Source of the DNA: Eledone cirrhosa
Lineage: Eukaryota
Assembly: GCA_964016885.1 (NCBI GenBank)
Contig: OZ024743.1
Coordinates: forward strand, 199,268,001 to 199,332,000
Length of the DNA stretch: 64,000 nucleotides
Direction: 5' to 3'
Position numbers and translations under genes: made by a program. The notes under the pieces were generated by a model. That model saw only the letters and a list, made by a program, of their open reading frames with translations, did no database searches and was not told the origin of the DNA. How positions within the stretch are numbered: the first letter of the stretch is position 1; each line of letters starts with the position of its first letter. Of the stretch, positions 26,882 through 28,050 are shown in pieces.

Positions 26882-27305
26882 ATATATATATATATATATA
26901 TATATATATATATATATATATATATATATATATATATATATATATATATATATATATATATATATATATATATATATATATATATATATATATATATATA
27001 TATATATATATATATATATATATATATATATATATATATATATATATATATATATATATATATATATATTTTTAGAAACACACAGATACATGCGGACACA
27101 CACATATATACATGAATGCATCCGCACCCAACTGTGAGTTAAGGGTGCCAACTTCACCGATGTTGCTCAATGAATGACTGGGACAGACCAATTCAGTTTG
27201 AACCAGACTGAACCAGTATCAGAGTTAAAAATACATTATGAAGAGAGAAGAAACATTTAGATATAATTAGTAATAAAATGTATCATACCTAAACTGCTCC
27301 TAAAT

Positions 27306-27393
27306 TCCTCGACTACGTAGTTTCGTGGCATAAACAAAAACAATATATCAAAGATATAGAGTCCTTGCGAGGTCTGCCAACTTATCAAGAGGA
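27306..27393 (-). ncRNA. type I hammerhead ribozyme, U3-A8 core variant (left-arm copy)
   Basis: Reverse complement of 27729-27816. Confidence 0.7.
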
Positions 27394-27728
27394 TACCTCA
27401 TTTTACTAGTCTCAAGAACGCGTCTACACGACGTGAGAAAGAATCCCAAAAGGCGGAGGGGGAGATAGTCACTCCCTCTGGTCGAGCAATCTTTGAAGTG
27501 TGGGGACAACTGGAAAGCTTCCATTACTCATACTTCTCGCCTTCTTCACTACCTCTTCTACGGCCTCGATATGAATACCCCCTCCGCCTCCGTGGTATTT
27601 TCTTCGTGGTTATAAGAGGCTTAGCTCTGTTTCTCGACCGTTATATCGCGTGACTATCTCCCCCTCCGCCTTTTGGGATTCTTTCTCACGTCGTGTAGAC
27701 GCGTTCTTGAGACTAGTAAAATGAGGTA

Positions 27729-27816
27729 TCCTCTTGATAAGTTGGCAGACCTCGCAAGGACTCTATATCTTTGATATATTGTTTTTGTTTATGCCACGAA
27801 ACTACGTAGTCGAGGA
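27729..27816 (+). ncRNA. type I hammerhead ribozyme, U3-A8 core variant (right-arm copy)
   Basis: Stem I UCCUC/GAGGA, core UUGAUAA, stem II GUUGGCA/UGCCAC with a long loop, GAAA, palindromic stem III ACUACGUAGU, and a GUC cleavage triplet ending at 27811. Confidence 0.7.
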
Positions 27817-28050
27817 ATTTAGGAGCAGTTTAGGTATGATACATTTTATTACTAATTATATCTAAATGTTCCTTCTCTCTTCATAATGTATATATATATA
27901 TATATATATATATATATATATATATATATATATATATATATATATATATATATATATATATATATATATATATATATATATATATATATATATATATATA
28001 TATATATATATATATATATATATATATATATATATATATATATATATATA

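Follow-up and report, generated by a model that had tools for sequence, protein, structure and literature searches.

Non-LTR retrozymes were defined by Cervera and de la Pena (2020; PMC7229834), who also proposed circular RNAs as their templates, and a preprint by Li et al. (bioRxiv 10.64898/2026.07.22.740005) derives them from the pLTRs of Penelope-like elements (PLEs). According to the accessible portions of both sources, metazoan members of this group are non-coding, tandemly repeated sequences whose units each hold one type I hammerhead and which are dispersed in thousands of copies beside autonomous PLEs, a description that also fits the family presented here. Invertebrate units typically have 170 to 400 nt and reach up to 972 in the preprint; the unit described here has 591 nt. 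In the same portions of the two papers, editing is named as a possibility only, and copy-level evidence for rolling-circle copying of a single template, or for edits fixed in DNA, is absent. EN+ PLEs carry inverted pLTRs and one-sided tails of 30-40 bp (PMC3846280, PMC8557442), and for the anole Poseidon element PAc, two start sites of reverse transcription, extension of both strands in vitro and a predicted dimer have been reported (PMC11167929). Hammerheads of related PLEs cleave poorly in vitro (PMC4209133), eight of nine Xenopus retrozymes failed to cleave (bioRxiv 2026.07.22.740005), and the cleavage of hammerheads as dimers is summarised in PMC6765202. The inverted repeats and one-sided tails of PLEs, the role of the hammerhead and the movement of retrozymes via RNA circles are stated as open questions in the available text of PMC8557442, PMC4209133, PMC7229834 and PMC11167929.

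An insertion of a young retrozyme family

The locus lies in a window of 64,000 nucleotides of the Eledone cirrhosa genome (contig OZ024743.1, positions 199,268,001 to 199,332,000), which is the whole stretch of DNA that was analysed. The initial annotation described it as a young, non-coding and non-autonomous foldback element of the Penelope type at 27231-27891, with arms on either side of a spacer from which transcripts could start in both directions. It is one insertion of a young, non-coding tandem retrozyme and not a terminal-inverted-repeat foldback, and it is very probably a retrozyme mobilised by a PLE. The kind of element is already known, as are retrozymes, U3-A8 cores and one-sided tails. 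The inverted arms had been described correctly (27231-27472 and 27650-27891, 242 bp each, with a single mismatch at 27251/27871), and the assignment as young, non-autonomous and Penelope-type is supported. The left limit of the insertion, however, is really at 27066, about 165 bp further out, and the arms correspond to the stretch in which two head-to-head copies of a tandem 591-bp monomer overlap. The spacer is ordinary unit sequence (unit 251-429), and the inversion is a by-product of insertion that differs at every locus.

The natural unit is numbered here with position 1 counted from the predicted cut of the hammerhead. The long-end (L) arm, located at 27066-27472 on the minus strand, consists of unit 430-591 and 1-245; it is 5'-truncated at the junction, and its 3' end lies on (TA)n. 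The outermost 165 nt of this arm (27066-27230, minus strand), which the first reading had overlooked, form a 'tail' that corresponds to unit 81-245 between the two fixed ends described below, is present in the L arm only and has a predicted fold with a z of about -7. The short-end (S) arm at 27471-27891 on the plus strand consists of unit 251-591 and 1-80, and its 3' end also lies on (TA)n. Both arms overlap by 2 nt at the head-to-head junction (27471-27472), corresponding to a 2-nt microhomology, and the insertion is bordered by (TA)n target tracts at 26881-27065 on the left and at 27892-28050 on the right. Further to the left, the right host flank (28051-28150), which is the head of a tRNA-like SINE, recurs as an inverted (minus-strand) duplicate of 100 bp at positions 26780-26880; the duplicate is 99% identical to that flank, and none of the 27 other copies detected exceeds 95%. 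Inverted host-flank duplications were seen in 3 of the 77 testable two-arm insertions (the window copy, L081 and L090; 45-144 bp) and in 1 of 60 one-arm insertions, and were rejected as a general feature at these frequencies. They might have arisen from two primers with the same polarity, as at a stalled fork. Direct duplications next to the (TA)n tracts were looked for at the insertions, and none was detected.

The unit is a 591-bp tandem monomer, the best genome matches of which are often located 591 bp apart, and the tandem joint is also present in four sequencing runs of unrecorded kind. A genome search returned 1,131 candidates, the best of them 99-100% identical. A 29-mer spanning the 3' core and the predicted cut has 7,024 exact matches in the genome and its reversed control has none, so the motif is not due to chance. 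An ORF check of the unit gave no convincing ORF, which bears out the earlier assignment as non-coding. The survey covered the window and 140 loci of C1, 60 of which were picked for their ribozyme pattern or their similarity to the arms and 80 for their end motifs, the latter comprising 79 of 95 listed regions and one apparent exception. After removal of one duplicate, it yielded 144 insertions, 78 with two arms and 66 with one arm; one locus lacked any arm. The extent of 5' truncation varies among the insertions, an inverted 5' copy and a one-sided tail are present, and no LTR layout was found in the parsed insertions. The self-complementary length of the 78 two-arm insertions ranges from 0 to 591, with a median of 226, and a whole ribozyme is contained in both arms of only 43 of them; the layout of the initial annotation is thus an accident of the window copy. 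At least two ribozymes occur within one arm in 59 of the 144 insertions.

A predicted U3-A8 hammerhead

Each arm of the window copy contains a predicted type I hammerhead with a U3-A8 core, one at 27306-27393 on the minus strand (predicted cut between 27311 and 27310) and one at 27729-27816 on the plus strand, with a palindromic stem III and a predicted cut at 27811/27812. The arrangement put forward initially was confirmed, namely stem I (UCCUC/GAGGA), UUGAUAA, stem II with its loop, here measured at 44 nt, GAAA, the palindromic ACUACGUAGU and GUC. The sequence conforms to the type I pattern YUGANRA/GAAA/UH, with U3-A8, G10.1-C11.1 and stems I-III, and a constrained hammerhead fold is predicted at -21.5 kcal/mol compared to -23.1 kcal/mol for the free fold. 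For stem III, the predicted energies of -12.9 kcal/mol for the dimer duplex and +1.5 kcal/mol for the hairpin strongly favour the duplex. The term 'minimal' does not strictly apply to it, since a short helix III is kept. None of the 41 hits that a scan with Rfam returned at E<=10 is a hammerhead, for which the core variant and the long loop may account.

The U3-A8 core and the 44-nt loop 2 distinguish the unit from the described retrozymes. Schistosoma Cercyon PLEs, as far as they are presented in the accessible part of PMC4209133, share with it the U3-A8 core, an unpaired base near the start of helix II, a palindromic helix III region and the occurrence of hammerhead pairs on opposite strands, 100-700 bp apart. 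In contrast to Cercyon, the unit has a long, structured loop 2 and retains two additional pairs and a tetraloop in helix III, and its hammerhead lies within a tandem monomer.

Conservation within the family alone is too shallow as a test for a ribozyme. Judged by eye, however, the core UUGAYAA/GAAA/UC is kept in two other families, F2 and F3, while the stems differ: stem I reads UCCUC/GAGGA in the 591-bp family (F1), GUCUC/GGGAC in F2 and ACCCC/GGGGU in F3, and the palindromic stems III differ, too. At loci that had not been selected by ribozyme, 2 of 83 inherited alleles affect core and stems, compared to 19 of 163 non-inherited alleles (P=0.015); with a stricter constraint set, the count of 2/63 is not significant (P=0.07). 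Taken together, a U3-A8 type I hammerhead is credible as judged from its sequence. The fold of the circular unit has a predicted z of -6.7, and the active stem I has a near-zero probability in the circle ensemble. Sequestration of stem I by unit 68-72, as hinted by the minimum free energy structure of the circle, was not borne out for the pairs checked.

Two fixed 3' ends

The 3' ends of the arms are located at two fixed positions of the unit, approximately 80 (S) and 245 (L), and the patterns used found 2,399 junctions of S with (TA)n and 967+734 junctions of L with (TA)n genome-wide. Among the two-arm insertions, 72 of 78 combine one S with one L end, S/S and L/L pairs are absent, and six have one odd end; the single apparent 245/245 pair was resolved into a mixed pair and a separate arm on parsing. 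The end-motif lists alone gave 37 mixed pairs out of 37 for C1:1-114 Mb. One-arm insertions (n=66) carry an S end in 38 cases, an L end in 27 cases and another end in one case. (TA)n adjoins 208 of 215 standard 3' ends, a fraction that partly reflects the selection at the 80 end-chosen loci, and the adjacency is also present in the 60 loci picked by ribozyme or arm. In one sequencing run of unrecorded kind, possibly from the source sample itself, loose (TA)n ends were found at both fixed sites.

Both end sites are AU-rich and located at the 3' foot of long predicted hairpins. Unit position G77 reads A in 20 of 113 S ends, as if the (TA)n target tract had annealed over it as a primer. The 78 junctions between arms show microhomology of 1-4 nt in 44 cases and of 5-8 nt in 4 cases, extra bases in 21 cases and neither in 9 cases. 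No enrichment for stalling at the start site of the other arm was found among the parsed arms. During twin priming of L1, both ends of the target start cDNA synthesis on one RNA, and the products are joined head to head by microhomology, with the arms copying non-overlapping parts of a linear RNA. In contrast to L1, both sites are fixed in the 591-bp family, and the arms overlap in the template and may exceed one unit.

With EN+ PLEs, the family has in common partial tandems, an inverted 5'-truncated copy, a tail at one end and AT-rich or (TA)n targets (PMC3846280, PMC8557442, PMC11167929). Differences from these elements are the lack of an ORF and the length of the tail, which is 165 nt instead of 30-40. 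The one-each rule is exact for the standard-end insertions (72/72), whereas the EN+ PLE papers, in the text available, describe the tail as optional or often one-sided. Furthermore, both start sites have (AU)n microhomology to the target, whereas the start sites of PAc were reported to be non-homologous (PMC11167929). More than half of all insertions consist of head-to-head arms whose unequal ends are fixed; the word 'inverted' does not occur in PMC7229834. In the mostly open-access literature that was searched, neither the strict one-each rule, the 165-nt tail and fossil edits, nor reports on PLE twin priming, the 591-bp family or edits fixed in retrozyme copies were found, and supplements, among them those of the bioRxiv preprint, may list such families.

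A probable single template per insertion

Divergence is 0.34% between the units of one arm and 0.28% between arms, compared to 2.46% between insertions. The spectrum of changes was derived from a tree of 104 insertions. Of the terminal changes that are present in all passes of an insertion, 38 of 76 are A>G on the ribozyme strand and 6 are T>C, a count that depends on the tree, which is poorly resolved; on internal branches, 35 of 94 changes are A>G and 13 T>C, and among mosaic changes, 18 of 219 are A>G and 39 T>C. A tree-free comparison of private variants gave A>G fractions of 11/37 for fixed and 4/131 for mosaic changes (P=1e-5). For alleles found in at most three insertions, the fractions are 17/64 and 6/165, respectively, which holds for each sample and without the insertion L073; this contrast owes part of its size to the low number of mosaic A>G changes. 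Strand asymmetry is modest in the tree-free class, with 17 A>G versus 11 T>C (P=0.014), or about 2.5-fold per base. A>G states covered by both arms are present in both in 72 of 78 cases, compared to 152 of 250 for other changes, and in L073, seven such changes recur in all passes of the two arms. Unit positions 107, 132, 277, 340, 395, 537 and 547 are recurrent sites of A>G change. The neighbour bias of ADAR, with few G on the 5' side and many on the 3' side, reaches significance when counted per event, though not per site, and the changed adenines lie in slightly more paired regions (P=0.014). No A>G excess was found in the autonomous element described below, which has 9 A>G on 860 A and 10 T>C on 480 T.

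These marks suggest that A-to-I editing took place before reverse transcription and that one monomer was read repeatedly. It had been proposed earlier that read-through transcripts fold into a long duplex and become ADAR or Dicer substrates; an A-to-I-like signal is indeed present, but it sits in the unit RNA that served as template. At the window copy, the 242-bp duplex could be formed by a read-through transcript, if one is made. Cephalopods are known for heavy A-to-I editing, and the argument from fossil edits is independent of this. Private mosaic changes in the 144 insertions comprise 21 T>C and 4 A>G, possibly resulting from misreading of U by the reverse transcriptase in individual passes.

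A model for insertion and its alternatives

The following mechanism is proposed. The unit RNA is likely cut to monomers by the predicted hammerhead, and the monomers are likely circularised and A-to-I edited. At a (TA)n break, a Penelope-like enzyme would then use both DNA ends to reverse-transcribe round the circle, one end priming at the AU-rich site that lies 80 nt downstream of the cut and the other end 245 nt downstream of it, with a single RNA molecule as their common template. Microhomology would serve to join the two cDNAs in head-to-head orientation, and the failure of one cDNA would leave a single arm. We consider this combination of circle, twin priming and editing to be reasonably probable. 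The chances are about even for the most specific version of the model, in which each insertion stems from a single RNA circle that was made by the ribozyme and edited by ADAR, and in which a dimeric Penelope-like reverse transcriptase, engaged with both ends of the (TA)n break, copied this circle in rolling-circle mode from the two fixed sites, so that RNA-level events are recorded per molecule.

Alternatively, uncleaved linear multimers from tandem source loci, the usual route of partial-tandem PLEs, could serve as templates, with homogenisation or growth of the arrays at the DNA level, an incidental ribozyme and A>G changes caused, for example, by errors of the reverse transcriptase. Insertion of the anole PLE in vitro does not need ribozyme cleavage (PMC11167929), unequal crossover has been proposed for the local expansion of retrozymes (bioRxiv 2026.07.22.740005), and the tree-free strand asymmetry of just about 2.5-fold per base would suit such a scenario. 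Edits or reverse transcription errors on multimers should, however, be mosaic between units, yet mosaic A>G changes are rare; moreover, all 219 mosaic changes are still unhomogenised, near-identical young insertions already contain several units, and the autonomous element lacks an A>G excess. Templates of this type are therefore unlikely.

A linear cleaved monomer, on which the enzyme jumps from the 5' end to the 3' end in a telomerase-like manner, would combine twin priming with a template that is not covalently closed, and it would explain common edits and identity within insertions equally well. The interval 1-20 nt past the predicted cut holds somewhat more 5' ends of arms than expected (17/215 versus 6.9), and this mild enrichment is found in both samples; it is weak as proof of cleavage, as other 20-nt intervals hold as many 5' ends. 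The cut site is crossed by 188 of 215 arms, and no indel was found there in 282 passes, 273 of which are exact, which favours a ligated circle over end-to-end jumps and makes a linear monomer a rather doubtful template.

The second arm could also be a snap-back copy of the first cDNA or a copy of one arm made during local DNA repair, in line with the near-identity of the arms and the inverted host-flank duplicates mentioned above for 3 of 77 testable two-arm insertions, the window copy included. However, in 28 of the 72 S/L insertions, again including the window copy, each arm has sequence that the other lacks, so that one arm is not a fold-back copy of the other, and the occurrence of the same end twice, which would be expected from snap-back, was never observed. 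This explanation is largely refuted and highly improbable. An element of the DNA transposon or MITE type, with terminal inverted repeats of 242 bp and a hammerhead-like motif that arose by chance, as might be suggested by the long near-perfect inverted arms and the TA context, is refuted by tandem 591-bp units, variable 5' truncation, the 66 one-arm insertions out of 144, unequal ends, variable overlap, a core that is kept across families with changed stems, and the lack of terminal inverted repeats that are fixed and paired in all copies, and deserves practically no credence.

The twin-priming model on an edited circle can be tested in vitro, as the family offers thousands of scorable events with an exact two-site rule and single-template marks, a 591-nt substrate and an intact candidate helper from the same genome. 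The family also hints at how A-to-I edits may enter the inherited DNA. If the most specific version of the model is true, the insertions would provide copy-level evidence for circRNA-templated retrotransposition, the inverted pLTRs and one-sided tails of PLEs would be explained as obligatory twin priming, and RNA editing by the host would be a main source of heritable change in the 591-bp family.

Autonomous elements and related families

The genome contains an intact autonomous PLE with RT and GIY-YIG domains, which is represented by many 784-aa open frames at 98-99% identity and is a candidate helper only. It targets (TA)n and has two ends located 41 nt apart. Each arm carries one of these ends in all complete two-arm copies (7 of 7); a further two are cut by region ends and stand outside this count. 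Its hammerhead is of the U3-A8 type, with GCAA in place of GAAA in the two copies read. Comparison of this one intact family with the 591-bp unit revealed no alignable sequence beyond short AU motifs. An active-looking autonomous PLE with a 4,734-bp unit is found at locus L221 (G000:C5:17086500-17096400), where a 455-aa upstream frame overlaps the 784-aa RT-GIY-YIG frame in another phase; a frameshift or an intron is possible. The hammerhead at L221 likewise has GCAA instead of GAAA.

Outside the insertion, the window contains a copy of F2 at 24913-25375 on the minus strand, which belongs to an older, related non-autonomous family with a U3-A8 hammerhead and different stems and was used as a comparator. 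F2 has a unit of about 720-735 nt and 2,310 candidates that are 89-94% identical, shares a motif near the L site with the 591-bp unit and seemingly has two ends as well. F3, a third U3-A8 family (L082 1240-2815; also in L038, L054, L087 and L126), has a long stem III and should fold as a monomer, and in its two-arm copies, a short end is combined with a long one. A further element with inverted arms and AT-rich ends is located at about 28450-28620 and 28830-28980 of the window and also occurs in L037 and L093. On the plus strand of the window, 21487-24602 holds two long frames of 381 and 678 aa, which resemble a LINE endonuclease and reverse transcriptase. Many more hammerhead families with canonical cores were noticed in L037, L042, L047, L064, L066, L068, L079, L086 and L087, among them, in L037, a 310-bp tandem array that has an inverted arm.
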